From sequence record OR880647.1: a DNA stretch of 63,590 nt. One strand, written 5' to 3'. This document shows positions 1-63,590 of the stretch, piece after piece. A program made the position numbers and the translations under genes. A model generated the notes under the pieces. That model was not told the DNA's origin. It saw only the letters and a list, made by a program, of their open reading frames with translations, and did not search any database. The DNA is from Escherichia phage ECP2304. The stretch's first letter is position 1; the number at the start of each line of letters is the position of its first letter.

Positions 1-441
1 GAATAATTTATTCCTACTTGATAGAATAATGGAATCGGTACTCCAGAGCGCAAAAACCTAAAACTTTCAGTCAACAGACTAAAAACGGATAGAAACTAAA
101 AGTTAATAAGTAATAACATAAATATATATAAAATAAGGATTTATTAGTAATGTATATAGTACCTATTGGTATTATTTGAATGTTTTTGGGTCATTGTTAA
201 AAAGTCCCAAAACTCACAAAAAGTGAAAGAATACAATTCGTGACAGGATTGTTAATGGAATAAGGTGTATGGATATACAGTATTATTCCAGATTCCGGAA
301 TAATTGGAATAATGGAATAAATTATTGAACTATTGTGATCGGAAGGTATATCAAGCTATAATGCGCTTAATCGCGGGATATTGGAGGAGGACTTTATTGC
401 GCGGTTAACCGGACCAGTAGGAGGGCTGGCCCGGAAGTAGT

Positions 442-768
442 TTAGAGCTGTACAGGTGTGAAGTGGGCTAGCGTATCGTCGGACATAATACCCGACAGTT
501 TTTCGTTTACCCAGTCGGACCAAATGCTATCCGGTTCCTGGCGGTGCACAAACCAGATTTCGGATGTGCCTTCTTTGCGCATCGGTTGCACTTCTGCAAG
601 GAACTTGTCCTGCATAAGGCGCGTGAAGCAGACGCTGGTCATTGGAACCGGCTTTTCGTCTTTATTGTAATAAGGGACCAATATTTTATTTCCGAAGTCT
701 GCAACTTCATAAACTGTTCCTTTGCGAAGGCCTCTGATGTCAGTGTAAGAGCGGATGAACTTTTTCAT
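442..768 (-). CDS. hypothetical protein (108 aa)
   Basis: ATG start, clean ORF in minus-strand gene string inside repeat. Confidence 0.5.
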   Translation of the reverse strand: MKKFIRSYTDIRGLRKGTVYEVADFGNKILVPYYNKDEKPVPMTSVCFTRLMQDKFLAEVQPMRKEGTSEIWFVHRQEPDSIWSDWVNEKLSGIMSDDTLAHFTPVQL

Positions 769-770
769 AT

Positions 771-947
771 TTATTTCCTTACGAACACAGAGCCGACGAA
801 TAATGTTGATTGAGTTGCAGCTTGCTCGATTAATTCGCCAACAAGCTGGGACTGCGTCAGAGGTTTAAGGCCTTCTTTGGCGCGAGCTTCATTTACACGA
901 CGTTGAAGGTCTTTTAGGTATTGAGTTGCGAAACTATCTAATTGCAT
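771..947 (-). CDS. small hypothetical protein (58 aa)
   Basis: ATG at 945-947 preceded by AAGGA RBS; stop 771-773; below track size cutoff. Confidence 0.4.
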   Translation of the reverse strand: MQLDSFATQYLKDLQRRVNEARAKEGLKPLTQSQLVGELIEQAATQSTLFVGSVFVRK

Positions 948-996
948 CTTCTTATCCTTAGGGCTCCCGCAGAAGCCCGTTGAATGTGGTTATCGA

Positions 997-1146
997 CTAT
1001 AACGCTGCAAACATAAGCAGACGAATATTAACTGAAGTTTGGCTATTAAAGTCTTGACATTCTTTGATAATCTCTTCTTCACTTTTACCACTAAGTTTAG
1101 AATATTCTGTGATTGCTTGTTTTAATACAGAATCAAAATTGTTCAT
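997..1146 (-). CDS. small hypothetical protein (49 aa)
   Basis: ATG at 1144-1146 preceded by AAGGAGG RBS; translated by hand to TAG at 997-999. Confidence 0.45.
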   Translation of the reverse strand: MNNFDSVLKQAITEYSKLSGKSEEEIIKECQDFNSQTSVNIRLLMFAAL

Positions 1147-1156
1147 TTTATCCTCC

Positions 1157-1771
1157 TTATGCGTCCAGACCGTTGTATTTGCGCCAGGCGTAGAACTGAA
1201 TGGCGACAGTTGTTCCGTTGTAAGAAGGCATTGCAGCTTTCATCTCTTTCAGCGCCGGCGTGCGGCCCAGTTCCTTCAGAAGCTTGTCACCCATTGCCCA
1301 CACTTCGGCAGTTTTTCCTTTAAGGGGCTTGCGAGCGCCATTTTTGAAATCGCAGCGAGCAGCTTTTGCATCCTGTTTTGGAGCGGCAGCTTTTGGCTCT
1401 TCAATTTTGATTTCAGAAACCTGCGTGGCAGCTTTTGCGTGTTTCATATCTTTCTCTTCCTCCTGCTCCAAAGCTTTGAGGCAGCTTTTGACGATTTCCG
1501 GATTTACCATCGGGCGCAGTACCGAGGCGCTAGCAGCTGGAGCGGCGGTCGGTGCTGGGGCTTTCTGCTCCGGCTTTTGAGCTTTTTCGTGATCGCGCAG
1601 CACCTGAAGGACTTCCTTTTCGACGATGTAAAAACCGATATCGTCCTGATGGATAAGCTGTTCGTGTGCGTCGCGTGCAACCTGGCCCCAGCGAGTTTTC
1701 AGAGCGCGGCGTGCATTCGTTTTCATGGTGTAGCGCATTTTGTCCTGTTCGCGGTGAGTTACTTTAGACAT
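1157..1771 (-). CDS. hypothetical protein (204 aa), basic N-terminus and Ala/Pro-rich linker
   Basis: ATG at 1769-1771 preceded by AAAGGAG RBS; in-frame with track ORF 1157..1816. Confidence 0.6.
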   Translation of the reverse strand: MSKVTHREQDKMRYTMKTNARRALKTRWGQVARDAHEQLIHQDDIGFYIVEKEVLQVLRDHEKAQKPEQKAPAPTAAPAASASVLRPMVNPEIVKSCLKALEQEEEKDMKHAKAATQVSEIKIEEPKAAAPKQDAKAARCDFKNGARKPLKGKTAEVWAMGDKLLKELGRTPALKEMKAAMPSYNGTTVAIQFYAWRKYNGLDA

Positions 1772-1844
1772 GGTATAGCTCCTTTCGTTAATGTTAGTTT
1801 GCTTATTACTGCCCACCGTAATGATGAGCAGTGTATAAGAAAAC

Positions 1845-2093
1845 TTACTGCACGATTGCTACGAAATCGGCGGTTGCGATATCCATGCTTGCAAACGCTT
1901 TGACGGTGTAGCTGGTATCTGCCGCGGCGTTGAAGTCGCTCAGGAACTGTTGTACCGCGTGCTCATGGTTGAGCATTACGTCTACATTGCAGTCCCAGCT
2001 ATAAACCTTGCGCTGACCGAAACCTTTAACTGCAATACGCGCGCCTTTGGTGTTGGTTGGTGCCAAAAATTTGGTGACGATAGAAGTAGCCAT
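1845..2093 (-). CDS. hypothetical protein (82 aa)
   Basis: ATG with GAGGA RBS. Confidence 0.55.
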   Translation of the reverse strand: MATSIVTKFLAPTNTKGARIAVKGFGQRKVYSWDCNVDVMLNHEHAVQQFLSDFNAAADTSYTVKAFASMDIATADFVAIVQ

Positions 2094-2166
2094 GATGTAA
2101 TCCTCGTTTTGTTTAAGTTGACTTATTATTGCCCAGTCAGATCAACTAGGCAAGATATAAATCAGC

Positions 2167-2391
2167 TTATTTAACCATCAAGGCCCATCTTTTATAGCCG
2201 TTCAGCTCCATTCTATGACCGTGGTCGTTGCAGTAACGTTGGATATTATTAAAGTCGTTATCGTTCATATCGCTGACGTCAATATTAAAATAGTTGCGCT
2301 TTGCAGGTGTAACGTATTGGGATAACTGCATTGAGTACAGATGTTCAATGTTGTCGATAATAGCTTGCTGAACTTTAGTGATAGTAGCCAT
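2167..2391 (-). CDS. hypothetical protein (74 aa)
   Basis: Internal ATG at 2389-2391 preceded by GGAGGTG RBS; track ORF extends to 2451. Confidence 0.5.
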   Translation of the reverse strand: MATITKVQQAIIDNIEHLYSMQLSQYVTPAKRNYFNIDVSDMNDNDFNNIQRYCNDHGHRMELNGYKRWALMVK

Positions 2392-2781
2392 GATACACCT
2401 CCTAATGTGGTTAAGCAGTATTGCTTTGTTGAAGTAATAATAGCCTTGCATCGTGATATTGAATAGGCCAAACGTGCTATTTTGATATTGTTTTGCATCT
2501 AGTGAAAATCATGCTTGTATCGCATATTTAGCACTAATGGCCTAACTAACATCACACGATCTGGTCTACGCGCGTGCATACATACATATAAGGAGTGCCG
2601 GACAGGATCGGACCGACCAGGGGCGCTCAACCGTCTCTGTCCGTCCTGTAAGCTGGTCCCCGGACTGGTCCAAAATATTTTTATAAAAAGATGCAAAAAG
2701 GTGTAGACATATGATCAATCTAACCCTACTATATACACATACCGCAAGGGTACTACAAATTAACTTAAAGGGGTTTACATC

Positions 2782-2985
2782 ATGTCTATTCGTAGCGTTA
2801 TCTGTGTAATGGTTGCAAACAATAATTTTGGTTTCGTAGAAGGTGCAGAGTATAAAATGGATCTTAAGACTCGTTGCATTATTAAAGGTGAAGAGGAATG
2901 GCGTGCAGTGGTAGAAGATCGCGGCGATATCTACATCTATAGTTCTGATACAATGAAAACTATTGCCGTCTTCGAATTTAACTAA
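2782..2985 (+). CDS. hypothetical protein (67 aa)
   Basis: ATG with AAAGGGG RBS; first plus-strand gene after divergent intergenic region. Confidence 0.55.
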   Translation: MSIRSVICVMVANNNFGFVEGAEYKMDLKTRCIIKGEEEWRAVVEDRGDIYIYSSDTMKTIAVFEFN

Positions 2986-3053
2986 GCTAACTTATACAAT
3001 GGGCATTAGTACAGTGCCCATTAATAAGCTAACTAATTATAACGAGGTGTATT

Positions 3054-3239
3054 ATGTCTACGAACACTGTGAAGTCTGTAAATAATAGCAACAGAACATT
3101 TAAAGTTATCTATTATGGCGAATATATTGGAGACGTTACAGCTCCCAGCCGCATCGCTGCGGAAGACTTCGTCCGTACAGAGATGGAGCTTGGAATCGCC
3201 GATTTTGCAGCCATTATCGAACTGGTAGAGGTATTCTGA
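3054..3239 (+). CDS. hypothetical protein (61 aa)
   Basis: ATG with GAGGTG RBS. Confidence 0.5.
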   Translation: MSTNTVKSVNNSNRTFKVIYYGEYIGDVTAPSRIAAEDFVRTEMELGIADFAAIIELVEVF

Positions 3240-3240
3240 T

Positions 3241-3381
3241 ATGCAACGCAAATACACGCTTACACGCGCACAGCACGCGTTATTGATTGCAGCTATGCGC
3301 GCAGAATATGCAGTACACGGCTGGCATAGCGCCATGATGCGAGGTAAAAGCATATATGCAGACATATGCTCGCAAGAATAA
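3241..3381 (+). CDS. small hypothetical protein (46 aa)
   Basis: TGAtATG coupling to upstream gene; hand-translated to TAA at 3379-3381. Confidence 0.35.
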   Translation: MQRKYTLTRAQHALLIAAMRAEYAVHGWHSAMMRGKSIYADICSQE

Positions 3382-3944
3382 CGCACACAGCAGCACCACA
3401 GCGAGCTAAAGCTCAAAGGTAATGGTAATGCATTACCAACACACAATAAGCACGCTGTACCCAGCAAAGCGGCGCTAATTTCAACACTCACAGGCTGTAC
3501 GTTAACGCGTACGGCCTGCTCTGCTATATGCACGCCATGTATATAGCCAGCTCACAATGCACATCAATATAATTACGAATGAAATGGATTCGTCTGGAAG
3601 AATAACAATTCTTACAGTCACAGACCGGTCCAATGAGCCAACTCATAGACCCCACCTAGGATCATCAGGGTACTAATAATCACCCGAGGGCCCTTATCCA
3701 TCCTGATAGTAAGTGCTTGCCTAAATCTTACCCATCACTTTACTATCCACATACATCCATGACCCCACCTACCTTCTTTTTGAATATATTGCGCTCATCC
3801 TTTCTAAATATATGGATTTTGGTAGTAAATTCTGAGTCGTCAACGTATAATCCGTCTTGTAGCTGCCCCATAGCTACCATCTTTAAGCGGATGCAACCAA
3901 TTTCTATCAATTCTCACCAGTTTTAGAGCATCAAGGAGGTATTT

Positions 3945-41756: not shown

Positions 41757-42479
41757 TCAAACGTGTTTGCTGTAAGCGTTATCCATAAATTCGCTGTACC
41801 CTTTAGCACGTAGTTTGCACGCAGGACATTCACCGCAACCATATCCCCAGTCATGCAGAGTGCGACGGACGCCGTTATAGCAAGTATGGGACTGTTCAAT
41901 TACTGTGGTTAAGAAACCAACCTTATCCGCTAGCTCAAACGTTTCTGCTTTATTTAAACGCATAAGCGGGGTAACGAAATGAATATCTGTTTCATATCCA
42001 ACGTTTAACGTAGCTTCAAGCAAGTCTACAAACTGCTGGCGGCAATCTGGATAACCGCTATAGTCTGTTTCACAAACGCCCGTAACCACATATCGGGCGC
42101 CAACTTTCTGTGCGTAGGCGTGCGCGGTAGTCAGGAAAAGAGCATTACGGTTTGGCACAAAGCTTGCCGGAAGGTTGTTGTGCTGTTCGTGATGTTCGTT
42201 AACATCACCTTCGTCCCCGATTAAAGCGCTATTCCCAATCTGTTTCAAAGCAGGTAATTCAAAGACAACAAATGGGACATCGTGCTCTTTACAAATTTGA
42301 TTAGCACAAGCCAGCTCAATGTTATGACGTTGACCGTATGCAAAACCAATAGCGTAAACCTTATCATAGTTATTAAGTGCAAGACCTAAACAGGTCACGC
42401 TGTCCTGGCCGCCAGACAGGACGACAACGGCGGAGTTATGATTTTTTACAGGGAACACCAGTTTATCTAATTTATTCAT
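41757..42479 (-). CDS. queC: 7-cyano-7-deazaguanine synthase
   Basis: PP-loop SGGQDS; C-terminal zinc Cys cluster CGECPAC; ATG at 42477-42479. Confidence 0.8.
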   Translation of the reverse strand: MNKLDKLVFPVKNHNSAVVVLSGGQDSVTCLGLALNNYDKVYAIGFAYGQRHNIELACANQICKEHDVPFVVFELPALKQIGNSALIGDEGDVNEHHEQHNNLPASFVPNRNALFLTTAHAYAQKVGARYVVTGVCETDYSGYPDCRQQFVDLLEATLNVGYETDIHFVTPLMRLNKAETFELADKVGFLTTVIEQSHTCYNGVRRTLHDWGYGCGECPACKLRAKGYSEFMDNAYSKHV

Positions 42480-42480
42480 C

Positions 42481-42669
42481 TTAGAACCCTTTAAGGCTAA
42501 TATTAAGATTAACGACCACTTGTTCAACTACATCATCAGATGTCATCTGACGCTTATGAATTTCAAGCTCCGAATGTATGTTCTTTGATGCAGCACGACA
42601 GATAGCGTCATTCAGCTCGTCTTGTAAACGTTGCATCTTCTGCATAAGAATCACAGTTTCTTCATTCAT
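42481..42669 (-). CDS. hypothetical protein, tandem paralog A (62 aa)
   Basis: Similar to adjacent 42662..42874 product. Confidence 0.5.
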   Translation of the reverse strand: MNEETVILMQKMQRLQDELNDAICRAASKNIHSELEIHKRQMTSDDVVEQVVVNLNISLKGF

Positions 42670-42874: not shown

Positions 42875-43127
42875 TTCTTTTCACCTTCACTAATGTTTGT
42901 TTATAATCCATACCTTCAAGGTCAACTTCTGCCATTTCACAAAAGTTATTATCCTCCCAGTATGGTGTCCATTTAGTTTGACCATCCCTCAATGTTGGCT
43001 CATACTCGAATCCATAAATTGTACCGTCTTGATCCGTAGCTAGCCACCATACCCATTCAGGGACATCAAGCTTATTGCCAAAATATTCAACTTCTTTAGT
43101 ATGCACAACCTGACTTAACACACGCAT
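42828..43127 (-). CDS. hypothetical protein, third member of paralog family
   Basis: Shares motifs with 4187..4438 and 5013..5309. Confidence 0.55.
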   Translation of the reverse strand: MRVLSQVVHTKEVEYFGNKLDVPEWVWWLATDQDGTIYGFEYEPTLRDGQTKWTPYWEDNNFCEMAEVDLEGMDYKQTLVKVKRNDHFGRSETASGNDH

Positions 43128-43834
43128 TATTCCACCCCGATATATTTGTGAACCTGAAGCTGCAATGTGTACCCGTGTTTCATACAGCTTTGGACAACCG
43201 CTTGAATGTTACTGTGGTTAAGATCTTCATCCTGCTCGTCCATTGGCTGTAAATATATCTTACCCTTGAACCCCTTCGGAGGTCTAGCGATAAATGGCGT
43301 AGCCTGATGATCTAATGCTTGAAGAGGTAAACCATCTTCCACGTTTACACAGCACGCTTTAAGTACATATTTAAATGCATTAGCGCGGTACAGCACAGAA
43401 GGATGAATCTTTGAGGTCTTAGGACTACATACAATCACAGGCAACTGGGAAAAGTTCTTAGGTAAAGGCATAGACCCATTAGTTTCAATTTGCACCAAAT
43501 AGCCGCGCGATAACAGTTGTTGAATAAACGGGTTAATTTGCTGACGGAACGGTTCACCCCCAGTAATAACCACAAGTGAGGTGCTATTGCCTGATTCCAG
43601 CTTACGGCTTTCAATTAAACGCATGATATCAACAATGTGATATTTGGTGCGACCGTTGGTATAGTCAGTATCACAGCCCGGACATTGCAGGTTACACCCA
43701 GCAAGACGCACAAATACAGCAGGCTGGCCGCAGAATGGCCCTTCACCTTGAATGGTAGAGAATACCGAATGCACGTCTAAATACATATCGTTTTCTTTAG
43801 AACGAGACTCGGGAGCTTGTTGATTAATATTCAT
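43127..43834 (-). CDS. queE: 7-carboxy-7-deazaguanine synthase (radical SAM)
   Basis: TIQGEG, CNLQCPGCDT cluster, ITGGEP, ETNG; AGAGGA RBS. Confidence 0.8.
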   Translation of the reverse strand: MNINQQAPESRSKENDMYLDVHSVFSTIQGEGPFCGQPAVFVRLAGCNLQCPGCDTDYTNGRTKYHIVDIMRLIESRKLESGNSTSLVVITGGEPFRQQINPFIQQLLSRGYLVQIETNGSMPLPKNFSQLPVIVCSPKTSKIHPSVLYRANAFKYVLKACCVNVEDGLPLQALDHQATPFIARPPKGFKGKIYLQPMDEQDEDLNHSNIQAVVQSCMKHGYTLQLQVHKYIGVE

Positions 43835-43903
43835 CTTAAATCCTCTAGTGAAAAAGAAAGCGCCTCATTGGGCGCCTTCATTATAACGTGATATGTTTTA
43901 ATA

Positions 43904-44704
43904 TTACAAGCCGTTCAGGGCTTCCGGTACTGGTACAGGTACGCAACCAGTCACACCATTAAATTTCTTCCAGCGTGCATACTGGGTTTTAACAGTATCT
44001 TCGTTCAGCCCGTGGCGACCAGCCAGGTTCAGAACATAAGAGATCGGAGCAGGCTGACCCAGCGTAGCGCTAATCTGGTCCATCAGAGCCCAAGCACGAC
44101 CGCAGGAAGTTTCCGGTTGCGGACGGCGAACACCGTTCTGTTCCGGCATACGATTAGCTTCTTTTTCTTTCTCACGGAGCTCTTTAGCGCGTGCTTTTTC
44201 CGCTTCTTTTTCTGCCTGTTTTGCAGCACGGATCTTGTCTTTGAAGCCTTTAATAGTAGCTTCCAGTTCGTCGACCATGCTCTGAGCAGCAGTCACTGCA
44301 CCGGACAGATCTTCACCTTTGGATTTTTTAACAACTGCTTTCAGATCTTTCAGAGCATTCTTTAAATGCTTCAGCTGTTCAGAACCCTTAGATTCTGCTT
44401 CCGTAATCTGTTCAACAGTGCTTTCATCGGTAATACCGGATAAAGCAAACTTCACGGTTTCAACTGCCTGGGAAAGAGCGGTAAATTTGTTTTCCGCTTC
44501 AATGCGGATTTCAGCTTGTTTCTTTTCAGCGGCAGCTTTTTTCTCTGCTTCTTTTTTCTCTTTTGCTACGCGTGCAGCTTCAGCAGCAGCGGCTTTCTTA
44601 GCTTCTGCGTCATTCACAGTAGCTTCTTTCTTTGCAGGTTTAGCAGATTTTGCAGCGGCAGCGGCGGCTGCGGCAGCAGCTTTTTTGTCTTCAATGTTGC
44701 TCAT
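43904..44704 (-). CDS. hypothetical Ala/Lys-rich coiled-coil protein
   Basis: ATG 44702-44704 after GGAG; poly-Ala run and KKAAAE repeats; C-terminal 70-aa globular region. Confidence 0.55.
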   Translation of the reverse strand: MSNIEDKKAAAAAAAAAAKSAKPAKKEATVNDAEAKKAAAAEAARVAKEKKEAEKKAAAEKKQAEIRIEAENKFTALSQAVETVKFALSGITDESTVEQITEAESKGSEQLKHLKNALKDLKAVVKKSKGEDLSGAVTAAQSMVDELEATIKGFKDKIRAAKQAEKEAEKARAKELREKEKEANRMPEQNGVRRPQPETSCGRAWALMDQISATLGQPAPISYVLNLAGRHGLNEDTVKTQYARWKKFNGVTGCVPVPVPEALNGL

Positions 44705-44831
44705 TCTCTTCACTCCGAATTGTTATGGGTTCGTTTGTTACCAACGGGGTTAAATGTACCAAAGGATTTTGTGACACGCAACCCCTTATCTGAACATTTT
44801 TAAAAATATTTTTGATCAAGCTTAGAACTTA

Positions 44832-45326
44832 CTAGCTCTTTGCCCCTCTGCCCGGCGTCCATGCAGCTTGCAATGCGGGTTGCTCACAAACGACCCTGGC
44901 ACCGGAAATAATACCACCCTCCCGTTCAGCATCGTATTTGACACGGGCAGGTTTCCAAAGTCCTTCATCCATTGACGGAACGTATTGCCCAATTTGAGGT
45001 GAGCAAAAGCCTTGGATATCGTATTCCACACAGAATTCGGCTTGTGCGCTGATTTGGGCGTGATCCAGGATTGTTTCTGGAAGTTGCGTAAAGTAATCAA
45101 ACAAAATGCGCTCAACGATTTCCCGTTCATAAGGTGCAGTTCCTAAATTTTCTGTCAAGTTAATATAAAGCATTTGAAGATCAACATCTTCAAGATCGTG
45201 TAAATCGTCTACTGGTGTTACCAGTGTTGACTCAGGGCAACAAATAATTCCAAGTTGGTGTAGTGTCAGCCAATTGGGATGCTTTGCCAAGAGTTCAAAT
45301 TTATCTGTATCAATCAGGACGTACAT
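44832..45326 (-). CDS. hypothetical protein (164 aa)
   Basis: Clean ORF. Confidence 0.5.
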   Translation of the reverse strand: MYVLIDTDKFELLAKHPNWLTLHQLGIICCPESTLVTPVDDLHDLEDVDLQMLYINLTENLGTAPYEREIVERILFDYFTQLPETILDHAQISAQAEFCVEYDIQGFCSPQIGQYVPSMDEGLWKPARVKYDAEREGGIISGARVVCEQPALQAAWTPGRGAKS

Positions 45327-45385
45327 TGCAATCCCCTATAAATAAGTAATGCCCCAATAGTAGGGGCATTAGATGTTGAAGTCAA

Positions 45386-47368
45386 TTAGAACGGAACGTA
45401 ATCCGGATCATCTACTTGTACAGGATTAACCACATTGTTCACCGTTATACCTTGCGTATTCTGTGAAACAATATCATCCCAGCTCACATCATCATTATAG
45501 CTTGGACCTTCGGTTGTTCCATCCTGCCCGTATACTTTAACCTGAATAGCTTCGTCGTCCTGTGGTGCTTCAAACTTACCGAAACACGTACCATCATAAT
45601 CATAGTTCAATATCTCAGGCCATTTCTTATTGGTATGAACTTTGATGTATTTTGGTGTTTTAAGCATTGCAGCAACATCAAGAGCTTCTTCAATAGTTTG
45701 TGGTAAAGGTAGATGCGTCCTTTTCTTCCACCATGCGACCGCTTTACGACCTGCCCAGTCACCATGAAGTAGAGCTACCCATTCGCTGAATATTTTACTA
45801 CCGCAATAATAAGTCACCTTCATTGTTGGAGGTTTAGAGCTGTCATTGCGTTTAGTGTGCTTCGCATAAGTAACATGCGTAACTTTAAAGTCTTCAACTA
45901 CCGGAATGTCCTGCTTGATCAATGCTTCGGTACTTGCTGCCTTTTTAAGTTTGGTTTGGAACTTAAACTCATGACCGCAAAATCCTTCTTTAACATAATC
46001 CGTTCCACGTAGTCTAAATCCCTTCAAATATAATTGTTGAACTTGTTCCTGTGTAACGCTGTTCATAGGGATTGGTGCAAAGCCACCGCAATAGCGAGCA
46101 GATGCATGATTATACGACCCGCACACATCGCATTCTTTAACCGGAGCAGTACCAGCACCTTTTTCGCCCGGGCGCTTGGGTTTAACAGGGTCGTTAATGG
46201 GGCCCAAACGGCGCGTATTACCGCTGAAATCCAGTACAAGGCAGTTCTGCTTAGGGCTTGCCGCAATAGCTTGCAAGCGGCCTTCCTGCGTGGAAAGATC
46301 AAATCCTTCCGCGTATACCGGACGCGTACCGCGACCCAACATCTGAACCCATAGCACAGCCGACGCAGTTGGGCGGAGCATGATAATTAAGTCCAGCATT
46401 GGATGATCAAAACCTGTGGTTAAGACGTTATTGTTAGTTAATGCTCGAAATTCACCGCGCTTGAATTTTTCAATAATCTCGTCACGTTCTTTTGCATCAA
46501 GCTTAGAGTGAATACATCCACAGCTAATACCCATATCGTTCAGCATATCGCACGCGTCTTTAGCGTGTTCAATACCAGAACAAAATATAAGCCAGCTTTG
46601 ACGGTCTTCACCACATTCAATTGCTTCCTCAAGTGCGCGGAGTGTTGCGTCATCGCGGTTTACCGCACTTTGCAGCTCACTCTGAATAAACTCACCGCCG
46701 CGTTTCCCTACACCATTGAGGTCCAGTTCCATCTTTGTACGCTTTGGCACAACCGGAAGCAAATAGCCTTGCTCCAGGAACCAGTTAAACGCTTCAGGGG
46801 TAGTTGCATCAAACGTTACTTTATCAAATAAAGCATCATCGTCTTTGTTTTCCTTAACAATTGAGCCGTAACCCAGTCGGTAAGGTGTAGCGGTAAGACC
46901 GATAATTTTTAAATACGGGTTAACTTCACGCAATGCTGCAAAGAACTTCTTATACATTGTTGCATCACGCGGACTAATAAGGTGCGCTTCATCCACAAAG
47001 ATTAGATCAACCTTGCCGAACTTTTTAGGATGCTTAGCAACAGATGCAATCCCCGCAAATGTGATAAGATTATAAACTTCTTTACGCTTCAAACCTGCGC
47101 TGTAAATACCTGCTGGCGCTTCAGGCCAGACTTTCATTAATTTATCATAGTTTTGCGCGATCAACTCTTTGACGTGAGTTAACATCATTACGCGCTGGTT
47201 TGGATACCATTTATAAAGCAGATCGAGGAACCCCGCGATAACGAGCGATTTTCCTGTCCCTGTTGGTAACAGGATCAAAGGGTTCCCCGCGTTACCCTTT
47301 TCAGCATCAAAATAGCGGAATACGCTATAAACTGCTTCCTGTTGATAATCGCGGAGCTGCATAATCAA
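45386..47368 (-). CDS. SF2 DEAH-box DNA helicase
   Basis: Walker A LPTGTGKS; FVDEAH; C-terminal Cys cluster; 660 aa. Confidence 0.7.
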   Translation of the reverse strand: MIMQLRDYQQEAVYSVFRYFDAEKGNAGNPLILLPTGTGKSLVIAGFLDLLYKWYPNQRVMMLTHVKELIAQNYDKLMKVWPEAPAGIYSAGLKRKEVYNLITFAGIASVAKHPKKFGKVDLIFVDEAHLISPRDATMYKKFFAALREVNPYLKIIGLTATPYRLGYGSIVKENKDDDALFDKVTFDATTPEAFNWFLEQGYLLPVVPKRTKMELDLNGVGKRGGEFIQSELQSAVNRDDATLRALEEAIECGEDRQSWLIFCSGIEHAKDACDMLNDMGISCGCIHSKLDAKERDEIIEKFKRGEFRALTNNNVLTTGFDHPMLDLIIMLRPTASAVLWVQMLGRGTRPVYAEGFDLSTQEGRLQAIAASPKQNCLVLDFSGNTRRLGPINDPVKPKRPGEKGAGTAPVKECDVCGSYNHASARYCGGFAPIPMNSVTQEQVQQLYLKGFRLRGTDYVKEGFCGHEFKFQTKLKKAASTEALIKQDIPVVEDFKVTHVTYAKHTKRNDSSKPPTMKVTYYCGSKIFSEWVALLHGDWAGRKAVAWWKKRTHLPLPQTIEEALDVAAMLKTPKYIKVHTNKKWPEILNYDYDGTCFGKFEAPQDDEAIQVKVYGQDGTTEGPSYNDDVSWDDIVSQNTQGITVNNVVNPVQVDDPDYVPF

Positions 47369-48273
47369 TCTTTCCCGTAATAGTTAGCTACTTGATAGTT
47401 TTGACAACCAACTTTTTGACCCTGCGTATCTACTGCAATGGAATGAAAATTGCAATACCATGTTCCATCATCTTTTGGCTCAAGAAATTGACATGTACGA
47501 CAGTTTACTTCCGGCATAGTTTTACGCCAGCACAATGAGGAATGGTCGCACCATTTGCATTCGAAGAAGGTAGAGTCTTTGAATGCACGGTCAGGAATAT
47601 CCGTAGCAATAGCAATCTGCACACCACGATCAATATACATGTCCGCAGTGACCGGATCAAATGGAATAATTTCTGCGTAAACTTCATCATCGTTCTTGTT
47701 TACAGCAAGATATAACGCTGCACCAAGTCCAAGCTTTCGCATATACACGTTCATCTGCACATAGTGCTCAGGTTTAGCTTCTTTGACACCTTTAGCTTTC
47801 AGCTTCTTGAAAGACTTATCATTATGGGTCTTCATTTCAGTAAGCACGGGCATTCCAGGCTGAACGTCCGGACAACCTATAACCACACCATCGCATGAAC
47901 CGCCAAAGTGTCCGCCAGCTTCGCTAATACGGAACTGGTGTCCGTTTTCATCCTGCTGGTAAACCTGCATACCTGCCGCAAGAAGCATAGCAATAAAGCG
48001 CGCTTCTTCCAGATGTCCGCGGTTAAATAAGCGGAGCTGGCGTCCATCAAACTCTTTACGCGTAGCCCAGCGATACCCATAGAACAGTTTGCGAGCACAT
48101 TGCTGTCCAATAAGGGAAGCGCCTAAGTGACTGCGATTTCCGCTTTCAGGACGATATGCGTCTTCAATTGTGGGAATAACTACGCCGAGATATTTACGGT
48201 AAGTCCCACCCTGATCTTTTTGCACACCGTCATTGATCGCTTGAAGTGTTTTTTCTGCAATATAAATAGCCAT
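47365..48273 (-). CDS. PD-(D/E)xK nuclease (Cas4/RecB-like exonuclease)
   Basis: D...EMK motif and C-terminal multi-Cys cluster. Confidence 0.5.
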   Translation of the reverse strand: MAIYIAEKTLQAINDGVQKDQGGTYRKYLGVVIPTIEDAYRPESGNRSHLGASLIGQQCARKLFYGYRWATRKEFDGRQLRLFNRGHLEEARFIAMLLAAGMQVYQQDENGHQFRISEAGGHFGGSCDGVVIGCPDVQPGMPVLTEMKTHNDKSFKKLKAKGVKEAKPEHYVQMNVYMRKLGLGAALYLAVNKNDDEVYAEIIPFDPVTADMYIDRGVQIAIATDIPDRAFKDSTFFECKWCDHSSLCWRKTMPEVNCRTCQFLEPKDDGTWYCNFHSIAVDTQGQKVGCQNYQVANYYGKD

Positions 48274-59787: not shown

Positions 59788-60336
59788 ACCCTAACACCCA
59801 AATCCCGACTGTTAGTAAAAAACGTATATAAATCAATAGCATAGATACTAAATGAATAGTGATTGGAATGGGTAGAAATCCAAATGATGGAAGTGGAATA
59901 ATTTATTCCTACTTGATAGAATAATGGAATCGGTACTCCAGAGCGCAAAAACCTAAAACTTTCAGTCAACAGACTAAAAACGGATAGAAACTAAAAGTTA
60001 ATAAGTAATAACATAAATATATATAAAATAAGGATTTATTAGTAATGTATATAGTACCTATTGGTATTATTTGAATGTTTTTGGGTCATTGTTAAAAAGT
60101 CCCAAAACTCACAAAAAGTGAAAGAATACAATTCGTGACAGGATTGTTAATGGAATAAGGTGTATGGATATACAGTATTATTCCAGATTCCGGAATAATT
60201 GGAATAATGGAATAAATTATTGAACTATTGTGATCGGAAGGTATATCAAGCTATAATGCGCTTAATCGCGGGATATTGGAGGAGGACTTTATTGCGCGGT
60301 TAACCGGACCAGTAGGAGGGCTGGCCCGGAAGTAGT

Positions 60337-60663
60337 TTAGAGCTGTACAGGTGTGAAGTGGGCTAGCGTATCGTCGGACATAATACCCGACAGTTTTTCG
60401 TTTACCCAGTCGGACCAAATGCTATCCGGTTCCTGGCGGTGCACAAACCAGATTTCGGATGTGCCTTCTTTGCGCATCGGTTGCACTTCTGCAAGGAACT
60501 TGTCCTGCATAAGGCGCGTGAAGCAGACGCTGGTCATTGGAACCGGCTTTTCGTCTTTATTGTAATAAGGGACCAATATTTTATTTCCGAAGTCTGCAAC
60601 TTCATAAACTGTTCCTTTGCGAAGGCCTCTGATGTCAGTGTAAGAGCGGATGAACTTTTTCAT
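60337..60663 (-). CDS. hypothetical protein (repeat copy of 442..768)
   Basis: Identical duplicate in right repeat. Confidence 0.5.
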   Translation of the reverse strand: MKKFIRSYTDIRGLRKGTVYEVADFGNKILVPYYNKDEKPVPMTSVCFTRLMQDKFLAEVQPMRKEGTSEIWFVHRQEPDSIWSDWVNEKLSGIMSDDTLAHFTPVQL

Positions 60664-60665
60664 AT

Positions 60666-60842
60666 TTATTTCCTTACGAACACAGAGCCGACGAATAATG
60701 TTGATTGAGTTGCAGCTTGCTCGATTAATTCGCCAACAAGCTGGGACTGCGTCAGAGGTTTAAGGCCTTCTTTGGCGCGAGCTTCATTTACACGACGTTG
60801 AAGGTCTTTTAGGTATTGAGTTGCGAAACTATCTAATTGCAT
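60666..60842 (-). CDS. small hypothetical protein (repeat copy of 771..947)
   Basis: Identical duplicate. Confidence 0.4.
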   Translation of the reverse strand: MQLDSFATQYLKDLQRRVNEARAKEGLKPLTQSQLVGELIEQAATQSTLFVGSVFVRK

Positions 60843-60891
60843 CTTCTTATCCTTAGGGCTCCCGCAGAAGCCCGTTGAATGTGGTTATCGA

Positions 60892-61041
60892 CTATAACGC
60901 TGCAAACATAAGCAGACGAATATTAACTGAAGTTTGGCTATTAAAGTCTTGACATTCTTTGATAATCTCTTCTTCACTTTTACCACTAAGTTTAGAATAT
61001 TCTGTGATTGCTTGTTTTAATACAGAATCAAAATTGTTCAT
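60892..61041 (-). CDS. small hypothetical protein (repeat copy of 997..1146)
   Basis: Identical duplicate. Confidence 0.45.
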   Translation of the reverse strand: MNNFDSVLKQAITEYSKLSGKSEEEIIKECQDFNSQTSVNIRLLMFAAL

Positions 61042-61051
61042 TTTATCCTCC

Positions 61052-61666
61052 TTATGCGTCCAGACCGTTGTATTTGCGCCAGGCGTAGAACTGAATGGCG
61101 ACAGTTGTTCCGTTGTAAGAAGGCATTGCAGCTTTCATCTCTTTCAGCGCCGGCGTGCGGCCCAGTTCCTTCAGAAGCTTGTCACCCATTGCCCACACTT
61201 CGGCAGTTTTTCCTTTAAGGGGCTTGCGAGCGCCATTTTTGAAATCGCAGCGAGCAGCTTTTGCATCCTGTTTTGGAGCGGCAGCTTTTGGCTCTTCAAT
61301 TTTGATTTCAGAAACCTGCGTGGCAGCTTTTGCGTGTTTCATATCTTTCTCTTCCTCCTGCTCCAAAGCTTTGAGGCAGCTTTTGACGATTTCCGGATTT
61401 ACCATCGGGCGCAGTACCGAGGCGCTAGCAGCTGGAGCGGCGGTCGGTGCTGGGGCTTTCTGCTCCGGCTTTTGAGCTTTTTCGTGATCGCGCAGCACCT
61501 GAAGGACTTCCTTTTCGACGATGTAAAAACCGATATCGTCCTGATGGATAAGCTGTTCGTGTGCGTCGCGTGCAACCTGGCCCCAGCGAGTTTTCAGAGC
61601 GCGGCGTGCATTCGTTTTCATGGTGTAGCGCATTTTGTCCTGTTCGCGGTGAGTTACTTTAGACAT
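61052..61666 (-). CDS. hypothetical protein (repeat copy of 1157..1771)
   Basis: Identical duplicate. Confidence 0.6.
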   Translation of the reverse strand: MSKVTHREQDKMRYTMKTNARRALKTRWGQVARDAHEQLIHQDDIGFYIVEKEVLQVLRDHEKAQKPEQKAPAPTAAPAASASVLRPMVNPEIVKSCLKALEQEEEKDMKHAKAATQVSEIKIEEPKAAAPKQDAKAARCDFKNGARKPLKGKTAEVWAMGDKLLKELGRTPALKEMKAAMPSYNGTTVAIQFYAWRKYNGLDA

Positions 61667-61739
61667 GGTATAGCTCCTTTCGTTAATGTTAGTTTGCTTA
61701 TTACTGCCCACCGTAATGATGAGCAGTGTATAAGAAAAC

Positions 61740-61988
61740 TTACTGCACGATTGCTACGAAATCGGCGGTTGCGATATCCATGCTTGCAAACGCTTTGACG
61801 GTGTAGCTGGTATCTGCCGCGGCGTTGAAGTCGCTCAGGAACTGTTGTACCGCGTGCTCATGGTTGAGCATTACGTCTACATTGCAGTCCCAGCTATAAA
61901 CCTTGCGCTGACCGAAACCTTTAACTGCAATACGCGCGCCTTTGGTGTTGGTTGGTGCCAAAAATTTGGTGACGATAGAAGTAGCCAT
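61740..61988 (-). CDS. hypothetical protein (repeat copy of 1845..2093)
   Basis: Identical duplicate. Confidence 0.55.
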   Translation of the reverse strand: MATSIVTKFLAPTNTKGARIAVKGFGQRKVYSWDCNVDVMLNHEHAVQQFLSDFNAAADTSYTVKAFASMDIATADFVAIVQ

Positions 61989-62061
61989 GATGTAATCCTC
62001 GTTTTGTTTAAGTTGACTTATTATTGCCCAGTCAGATCAACTAGGCAAGATATAAATCAGC

Positions 62062-62286
62062 TTATTTAACCATCAAGGCCCATCTTTTATAGCCGTTCAG
62101 CTCCATTCTATGACCGTGGTCGTTGCAGTAACGTTGGATATTATTAAAGTCGTTATCGTTCATATCGCTGACGTCAATATTAAAATAGTTGCGCTTTGCA
62201 GGTGTAACGTATTGGGATAACTGCATTGAGTACAGATGTTCAATGTTGTCGATAATAGCTTGCTGAACTTTAGTGATAGTAGCCAT
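62062..62286 (-). CDS. hypothetical protein (repeat copy of 2167..2391)
   Basis: Identical duplicate. Confidence 0.5.
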   Translation of the reverse strand: MATITKVQQAIIDNIEHLYSMQLSQYVTPAKRNYFNIDVSDMNDNDFNNIQRYCNDHGHRMELNGYKRWALMVK

Positions 62287-62676
62287 GATACACCTCCTAA
62301 TGTGGTTAAGCAGTATTGCTTTGTTGAAGTAATAATAGCCTTGCATCGTGATATTGAATAGGCCAAACGTGCTATTTTGATATTGTTTTGCATCTAGTGA
62401 AAATCATGCTTGTATCGCATATTTAGCACTAATGGCCTAACTAACATCACACGATCTGGTCTACGCGCGTGCATACATACATATAAGGAGTGCCGGACAG
62501 GATCGGACCGACCAGGGGCGCTCAACCGTCTCTGTCCGTCCTGTAAGCTGGTCCCCGGACTGGTCCAAAATATTTTTATAAAAAGATGCAAAAAGGTGTA
62601 GACATATGATCAATCTAACCCTACTATATACACATACCGCAAGGGTACTACAAATTAACTTAAAGGGGTTTACATC

Positions 62677-62880
62677 ATGTCTATTCGTAGCGTTATCTGT
62701 GTAATGGTTGCAAACAATAATTTTGGTTTCGTAGAAGGTGCAGAGTATAAAATGGATCTTAAGACTCGTTGCATTATTAAAGGTGAAGAGGAATGGCGTG
62801 CAGTGGTAGAAGATCGCGGCGATATCTACATCTATAGTTCTGATACAATGAAAACTATTGCCGTCTTCGAATTTAACTAA
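62677..62880 (+). CDS. hypothetical protein (repeat copy of 2782..2985)
   Basis: Identical duplicate. Confidence 0.55.
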   Translation: MSIRSVICVMVANNNFGFVEGAEYKMDLKTRCIIKGEEEWRAVVEDRGDIYIYSSDTMKTIAVFEFN

Positions 62881-62948
62881 GCTAACTTATACAATGGGCA
62901 TTAGTACAGTGCCCATTAATAAGCTAACTAATTATAACGAGGTGTATT

Positions 62949-63134
62949 ATGTCTACGAACACTGTGAAGTCTGTAAATAATAGCAACAGAACATTTAAAG
63001 TTATCTATTATGGCGAATATATTGGAGACGTTACAGCTCCCAGCCGCATCGCTGCGGAAGACTTCGTCCGTACAGAGATGGAGCTTGGAATCGCCGATTT
63101 TGCAGCCATTATCGAACTGGTAGAGGTATTCTGA
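62949..63134 (+). CDS. hypothetical protein (repeat copy of 3054..3239)
   Basis: Identical duplicate. Confidence 0.5.
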   Translation: MSTNTVKSVNNSNRTFKVIYYGEYIGDVTAPSRIAAEDFVRTEMELGIADFAAIIELVEVF

Positions 63135-63135
63135 T

Positions 63136-63276
63136 ATGCAACGCAAATACACGCTTACACGCGCACAGCACGCGTTATTGATTGCAGCTATGCGCGCAGA
63201 ATATGCAGTACACGGCTGGCATAGCGCCATGATGCGAGGTAAAAGCATATATGCAGACATATGCTCGCAAGAATAA
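63136..63276 (+). CDS. small hypothetical protein (repeat copy of 3241..3381)
   Basis: Identical duplicate. Confidence 0.35.
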   Translation: MQRKYTLTRAQHALLIAAMRAEYAVHGWHSAMMRGKSIYADICSQE

Positions 63277-63590
63277 CGCACACAGCAGCACCACAGCGAG
63301 CTAAAGCTCAAAGGTAATGGTAATGCATTACCAACACACAATAAGCACGCTGTACCCAGCAAAGCGGCGCTAATTTCAACACTCACAGGCTGTACGTTAA
63401 CGCGTACGGCCTGCTCTGCTATATGCACGCCATGTATATAGCCAGCTCACAATGCACATCAATATAATTACGAATGAAATGGATTCGTCTGGAAGAATAA
63501 CAATTCTTACAGTCACAGACCGGTCCAATGAGCCAACTCATAGACCCCACCTAGGATCATCAGGGTACTAATAATCACCCGAGGGCCCTT

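Follow-up and report, generated by a model that had tools for sequence, protein, structure and literature searches.

What is the role of the alanine- and lysine-rich protein encoded beside queE in Escherichia phage ECP2304? Its gene occupies positions 43904-44704 on the minus strand of record OR880647.1 (the window, meaning the whole stretch analysed, is 63,590 nucleotides long), and an earlier note had described the product as a histone H1-like coiled coil that could compact or protect the modified phage genome. The boundaries given there proved exact (ATG at 44704, stop codon at 43904-43906, a GGAG Shine-Dalgarno sequence, 266 residues, homologues elsewhere), and the gene does lie directly upstream of queE. 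As 211 homologues found by word-index search and 1,988 cluster representatives have its C-terminus, we take the open reading frame (ORF) to be coding. We tentatively propose that this C-terminus, a domain of ~75 residues, tethers a non-structural protein of the replication/modification module to DNA, the main rival reading being that it docks onto another phage protein.

The conserved C-terminal domain and its variable arm

Only the last ~75 residues are common to the homologues, whether one considers the 211 sequences of the word-index search or the alignments of 28 and 58 diverse members. The C-terminal globular region predicted earlier is therefore real, measures ~70-80 residues, and is the sole part conserved family-wide. 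Its consensus reads MPEQNGVRRPKPxTLCGxAWxxxDxxSxxLGxPxPIxxxLxxAxxxGLNExNVKTEYARWRKFxGxTGRV, in which N, P, W, Y and W do not vary across the 58 non-redundant sequences, and the domain profile retrieves 1,988 cluster representatives at E <= 1e-3 and 864 at E <= 1e-10 (clusters at 50% identity). Against PHROG 11298, a family of unknown function, the protein aligns over residues 15-266 (profile positions 1-260 of 273, E 2.3e-116), and among the families tested it is a full member of this one only. The domain itself recurs in PHROGs 18634, 21588, 17772 and 22313 and at the C-terminus of 7864, all equally annotated as 'unknown function'. None of the tested domain sequences matched Pfam, where Sigma70_r4_2, HTH_65 and PaaX were the sub-threshold hits, and searches of Pfam (E <= 1), NCBIfam and PDB sequences with the whole protein and with the C-terminal domain gave compositional or sub-threshold matches only. 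By these comparisons the domain is a candidate new family, described by no database. It also appears to be essentially phage-only, as the prokaryotic matches numbered 8 in 185,579 genomes (one per species), mostly on contigs of metagenome-assembled genomes of ~55-57 kb, roughly the size of a phage genome.

An AlphaFold2 model computed with the 58-sequence alignment consists of a beta-hairpin over QNGVRR and three helices (mean predicted local distance difference test score 77, helices 85-88); at its C-terminus the GxTGRV segment comes out extended, at low confidence. By eye, the segment formed by helix 2, turn and helix 3 (VLNLAGRHGLNEDTVKTQY) agrees with the classical helix-turn-helix (HTH) signature, having Ala at position 5, Gly at 9 and Val at 15. 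From the model, an HTH- or winged-helix-like fold is predicted. A Foldseek search of the PDB returned no match with E < 0.8. The nearest solved structures, all weak, are the winged helices of RPA32C, the archaeal MCM C-terminus, cullin WHB and APC2, and also the three-helix repeats of RecX; compared with the RPA32, MCM and RecX structures, the domain scores under the level of homology, has 4-13% identity, and differs in carrying its hairpin N-terminal to the helices.

The domain is borne by proteins of diverse architecture. Some contain two to three tandem copies (P0121, P0195, P0122, P0206). In many phages, the product of the gene just 3' of the helicase has the domain after a SAP/HeH-like motif (MGKEELRAAC...), and often a CPHC...CLGC zinc ribbon between the two. 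The N-domain encoded by ORF164, the gene preceding ours, is found directly upstream of the family member in ~75 loci among those examined, and in most relatives the C-terminus of the ORF164 protein is a diverged form of the domain (hhalign probability 85%, E 6e-6), an N-domain-plus-handle arrangement that corresponds exactly to PHROG 7864. In six proteins (P0095, P0159, P0168, P0180, P0187, P0255) the ORF164 domain, whose model contains a SAP/HeH-like sub-structure, is fused via an Ala/Lys linker to a canonical copy. The Seuratvirus ORF164 has lost its C-terminal handle. ECP2304 encodes a second protein with the same C-terminal domain (the paralogue of Table 1), which has the N-terminal 'K.NA.RAL...GFY' motif of the helicase-proximal class; its gene lies ~13 kb away among small genes, and in other phages this class adjoins the helicase. 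Two or three 'tailed' proteins per phage have the same C-terminal handle on different N-terminal modules.

The region before the domain varies between homologues from ~50 to 190 residues, and in sequence, and in the ECP2304 protein it comprises three segments (Table 1). As the earlier note said, the protein does open with a poly-Ala run, which is ten residues long, but the Ala/Lys-rich low complexity that was thought to cover about 190 residues is confined to residues 1-66 and 157-186 (A+K+E content of 77% and 70%). The insert between them has a pI of 5.2 in a protein of pI 9.2 overall, and is found in the enterobacterial subfamily (Seurat/9g/Vid5-type) only. The supposed KKAAAE/AEKKA repeats are compositional: no tandem repeats were detected in the DNA of the gene, and what looks like them are echoes of codon composition. 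A crude periodicity test, in which the Fourier spectrum of hydrophobicity was compared with that of 2,000 shuffles, gave no 3.5-residue (heptad) signal in any segment, and strong hydrophobic residues make up 7.6% of residues 1-66; the coiled coil is not supported on these grounds. Residues 100-186 did give the 3.6-residue period of an amphipathic helix, at a level reached by 0 of the 2,000 shuffles. As to charge, residues 1-66 contain 23% Lys, 14% Glu, 17% Glu and Asp together and 2% Pro, for a net charge of +5, and in 225 homologues the net charge of the pre-domain region has a median of +3 (over 109 residues). With so little charge, the Ala/Lys-rich region is a polyampholyte close to neutral and not a polycation of the H1/Hc1/AlgP type, and the likeness to histone H1 is not supported. 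Polyampholyte helices of a similar kind are known from TolA domain II and from ER/K helices. A few homologues (P0063, P0079, P0109, P0114) have hydrophobic N-termini resembling signal peptides or lipoproteins (e.g. MQRKFGILSALAACVLMSAAAD), which may be membrane-anchored variants or miscalled starts.

A possible DNA handle and its alternatives

The gene sits in the replication/recombination block of the genome, not in the structural block. Virion proteomes could be compared for two related phages, Vid5 and R7M, neither of them a Seuratvirus: the target homologue gp42 is not among the proteins named for Vid5, whose virion proteome comprises 11 (PMC6266253), and no homologue is listed among the 14 proteins of R7M, i.e., 13 predicted structural ones and ORF28 (PMC8265664). 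Together with the position in the replication block, these absences speak against a role for the protein in compacting or protecting the modified DNA inside the virion. The DNA-binding role proposed along with it survives in part, nucleic-acid binding being still the likeliest activity; it would, however, come from the C-terminal domain and not from the Ala/Lys-rich tail. In the literature on the protein itself, its PHROGs, Seurat gp44, the proteomics and transcriptomics of Queuovirinae and the BASEL escape mutants, we found no functional data. The KpAvs2 paper was set aside as a source, since its subject is the Seuratvirus terminase and not this protein.

The reading that we prefer, if only tentatively, is that the gene encodes a non-structural member of the replication/modification module, held on DNA by its C-terminal domain. 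The HTH/winged-helix-like domain would tether the protein to double-stranded DNA, most likely that of the phage, with little sequence preference or a shared one. The Ala/Lys/Glu-rich helix, extended in enterobacterial phages by the insert of ~90 residues, would serve as an evolutionarily plastic arm or spacer, and could project from the DNA or self-associate. Because the same handle is found on different N-terminal modules (SAP/HeH with zinc ribbon, ORF164 domain, charged helix), it would bring each of these to one common target while the 7-deazaguanine-modified genome is being replicated. We favour DNA as this target because of the fold class, the tandem arrays, and the companion SAP/HeH and zinc-ribbon modules. 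The protein is probably abundant or highly expressed.

Several observations weigh against a DNA tether. The sole hairpin of the model (residues 9-14) precedes helix 1, whereas a canonical wing comes after helix 3, and with a net charge of +2 the domain is no more than mildly basic. Among its closest structural neighbours, several (RPA32C, the MCM C-terminal winged helix, cullin WHB) bind protein, not DNA, and no iteron-like or repeated DNA motif or operator was found near the gene. Finally, the putative recognition helix is unusually conserved in phages of hosts from Escherichia to Synechococcus, which fits a conserved protein partner as well as non-specific DNA binding.

The target is possibly a replisome partner instead, and the protein an adaptor of the replisome or of an enzyme. 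This reading is the main rival because the surface of the domain is conserved in phages of distant hosts and because protein-docking winged helices are among its neighbours. Like the C-terminal winged helices of RPA32 or MCM, the domain would dock onto one conserved phage hub protein (the adjacent SF2, or superfamily 2, helicase, DpdA, the beta-like clamp or PolA), and the N-terminal modules would be cargo or spacers. The high conservation of surface-type residues in very distant phages, the presence of several proteins per genome with the same handle, an invariant place beside the helicase inside the replication block, and the protein-binding character of RPA32C, MCM-C, cullin WHB and APC2 all agree with this. 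Arrays of two to three tandem copies and SAP/HeH and zinc-ribbon partners are, however, more typical of nucleic-acid binders, and the genes of Synechococcus phage Yong-L2-223 follow PolA and are not beside the helicase. We regard the adaptor as less likely than the DNA tether.

A sequence-specific transcription factor, i.e., a middle or late activator or an autoregulator, seems improbable. An HTH-like C-terminal domain and a conserved promoter-like spacer before the gene would suit this role, and since we noticed no phage RNA polymerase, the host enzyme would have to be redirected. Orthologues in CSP1, phiG7, SD04, Vid5, R7M, Iggy and CA8 even carry a transcriptional activator/FtrA label ('transcriptional activator FtrA domain-containing protein' in GenBank). 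Yet neither the protein nor its C-terminal domain matches AraC/FtrA, DJ-1/PfpI or any other Pfam or NCBIfam family, and these labels therefore look like weak hits passed on from record to record. Specific operators are argued against by a recognition helix that is near-identical across unrelated hosts, a charged helix of 100-190 residues and multiple paralogues with the same domain would be unusual for a simple regulator, and the promoter-like element is unique in the genome. Other names given to the orthologues are 'outer capsid protein' (CSP1C) and 'plectin 1' in GenBank, and for several homologues at JGI COG3064, 'membrane protein involved in colicin uptake' (TolA); the Seurat record calls gp44 a 'hypothetical protein'. 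All these public names (FtrA activator, outer capsid protein, plectin, colicin uptake), and likewise 'chromosome segregation ATPase', appear unfounded.

We give little credence to the idea that the domain reads DNA carrying 7-deazaguanine, or that it helps the phage transglycosylase DpdA, as a cofactor, to find its DNA. Such a reader or cofactor would account for the co-extension of the family with one DpdA lineage and for the adjacency to the genes from queE to dpdA, including a contig with dpdA and without genes for preQ0 synthesis. In the phage database, 150 records contain the domain versus 154 with a full-length DpdA of this clade, and the taxon counts are almost the same. However, the 56 Mycobacterium phages with DpdA, and those of Cellulophaga, Arthrobacter and Streptococcus, are not among the taxa listed as carriers of the domain; the family therefore tracks one phage backbone and not DpdA as such, and we rejected a strict functional link to DpdA as unproven. 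With the sequences at hand, linkage to the modification pathway is not separable from shared ancestry. If the reader existed, a helix in the major groove would face position 7 of guanine, and the two or three handle proteins could distinguish the modified DNA of the phage from the unmodified DNA of the host and steer replication, recombination or modification to the former.

Hardly any credit is left to a histone H1/AlgP-like tail that coats, compacts or protects the modified genome and is possibly packaged in the virion, for although the N-terminus is Ala- and Lys-rich, the overall pI basic and the gene adjacent to the 7-deazaguanine cluster, the tail is near-neutral and partly acidic in the protein and its family and is not conserved, Linker_histone (PF00538) is unmatched at E <= 1 and no other Pfam family is hit, and the homologues are missing from both virion proteomes and encoded in the replication block.

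A handle shared by several proteins of the replication block offers a concrete and testable entry to the way in which these phages organise the replication of a hypermodified genome, and to the question whether any protein reads the modification. Were the domain simply a generic tether to DNA, the gain would be a useful correction of annotations and a candidate for a new domain family, with no new principle behind it.

The locus, its expression signals and its relatives

The window is a Seuratvirus (Queuovirinae) genome of 59,895 bp read past its start: bases 1-3695 equal 59896-63590 with 0 mismatches over 3,695 bases, and the genes of this overlap therefore show up twice. The ends are those of a circularly permuted or terminally redundant genome. 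The 3 kb around the target gene are 93-95% identical to Cronobacter phage CSP1, to Escherichia phages Seurat, phiG7 and WildeMaa, and to 30 further records. The gene and all its neighbours are on the minus strand, in the order of transcription Cas4-like exonuclease, SF2 helicase, terminator, ORF164, target, terminator, queE, small ORFs, queC, and a YhhQ-like transporter (Table 1).

Table 1. Features of the target gene and its surroundings in the window (all positions refer to the 63,590-nucleotide stretch).
Feature	Position	Strand	Basis
Target coding sequence, 266 residues + stop; Seurat gp44 orthologue; PHROG 11298	43904-44704	-	ORF, sequence and profile matches
Shine-Dalgarno GGAG, 8 nt 5' of target ATG	44713-44716	-	sequence; same site annotated in Seurat record
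Residues 1-66: poly-Ala run A9-A18; low-complexity helix rich in Ala/Lys/Glu	44507-44704	-	alignment, composition, periodicity
Residues 67-156: acidic, amphipathic-helical insert of normal complexity	44237-44506	-	composition, alignment, periodicity
Residues 157-186: second helical linker, rich in Ala/Lys/Glu/Arg, before the conserved domain	44147-44236	-	alignment, composition
Residues 187-266: conserved C-terminal domain, motif MPEQNGVRRP..C..W...D...G.N...V.T.Y..W+KF.G..GR	43907-44146	-	alignments, model, profile
Candidate target promoter TTGCGT-17-TACATT with TG extension	44753-44781	-	sequence; stricter scan did not report it
Intrinsic terminator-like hairpin and T-run, target/queE junction	43856-43879	-	scan; terminator in Seurat record
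Intrinsic terminator-like hairpin, helicase/ORF164 junction	45347-45371	-	scan; Seurat record
ORF164, conserved upstream partner (N-domain of PHROG 7864)	44832-45326	-	homologue, profile and structure comparison
Cas4-like exonuclease	47365-48273	-	ORF annotation
SF2 helicase	45386-47368	-	ORF annotation
queE	43127-43834	-	ORF annotation
queC	41757-42527	-	ORF annotation
Paralogue, second protein of the phage with the same C-terminal domain	1157-1816 = 61052-61711	-	hidden Markov model, E 4e-8

The terminator-like hairpins after the helicase and after the target gene make ORF164 and the target a bracketed two-gene cassette. The spacer between these two genes (44705-44831, 127 nt) is almost invariant among five Seuratviruses. 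It contains a promoter-like element, of which we found no second copy in the genome, flanked by GGGGTT/AACCCC and preceded by an A/T-rich palindrome. From its sequence, a dedicated promoter for the target gene is plausible. The RNA fold of the spacer is unremarkable (z -1.5), and it has no credible Rfam match. Another sigma-70-like element, TTGTAA-18-TATAAT (10/12) at 43880-43909 on the minus strand, overlaps the stop codon of the target and runs into the hairpin preceding queE; probably one of the two is non-functional, or else they form a regulatory junction.

In the IMG/VR loci, the genes follow the order Cas4-exonuclease, SF2 helicase, (ORF164-type), target, queE, queC, folE, dpdA, clamp and polA, and queE starts ~0.1-1.1 kb from the gene in 79 of the 80 metagenomic loci, the 80th ending before queE could appear. 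Annotated phages that infect Pantoea, Pseudomonas, Rhizobium, Stenotrophomonas and Vibrio show this order too, as do metagenomic contigs. The gene thus keeps its place throughout a large lineage of siphoviruses that modify their DNA with 7-deazaguanines, comprising Seuratvirus, Nonagvirus, Nipunavirus, Iggyvirus and Vidquintavirus, with many Vibrio, Rhizobium and metagenomic relatives. On contig SRR24750923_80184 (L007, 2280-7356) a single protein has three tandem copies of the domain, and a DpdA homologue (25% identity, E 2e-29) is encoded two genes downstream with no queE, queC, queD or folE in between; this phage may use host preQ0 or another substrate. In Yong-L2-223 (L015, 6683-7900), two adjacent domain genes lie 3' of DNA polymerase I and not between helicase and queE, and a database search found three places in this record that match the domain.

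Comparison with known systems

Judged from its sequence, the protein lacks the testable hallmarks of KfrA, H1/Hc1/AlgP, TolA and AraC/FtrA. The tails of H1, Hc1 and AlgP are strongly polycationic, contain Pro and are nearly free of acidic residues, and eukaryotic H1 has a winged-helix globular domain in addition. Ala/Lys-rich low-complexity sequence is what the protein has in common with them, but its Glu content and small net charge in residues 1-66 differ, and it has no short Pro-containing repeats (SPKK, KPAA, AKKA-P). With domain II of TolA (COG3064) it shares a long Ala/Lys/Glu-rich helix that leads to a small globular C-terminal domain, a resemblance that is compositional; a TolA-like membrane protein, considered in view of the few homologues with hydrophobic N-termini, was rejected, as the protein has neither a hydrophobic N-terminus that could anchor it in the membrane nor a Pfam match to the TolA C-terminal domain.

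H-NS, MvaT and Lsr2 have a small DNA-binding domain at the C-terminus, joined by a linker to an N-terminal helical region that may self-associate, and some phages carry such proteins. The likeness of our protein to these is one of architecture only, as no search gave similarity in sequence or fold, and its self-association is putative. KfrA of the IncP-1 plasmids RK2 and R751 has an N-terminal HTH and a long, Ala-rich, genuine coiled coil. Compared with KfrA, the order of the two parts is reversed in our protein, the heptad signal is absent, KfrA_N (PF11740) is unmatched at E <= 1, and we detected no sequence relationship. The two resemble each other in combining a small HTH domain, a predicted one in our case, with a long Ala-rich helix, in being encoded by mobile elements, and in their association with DNA maintenance.
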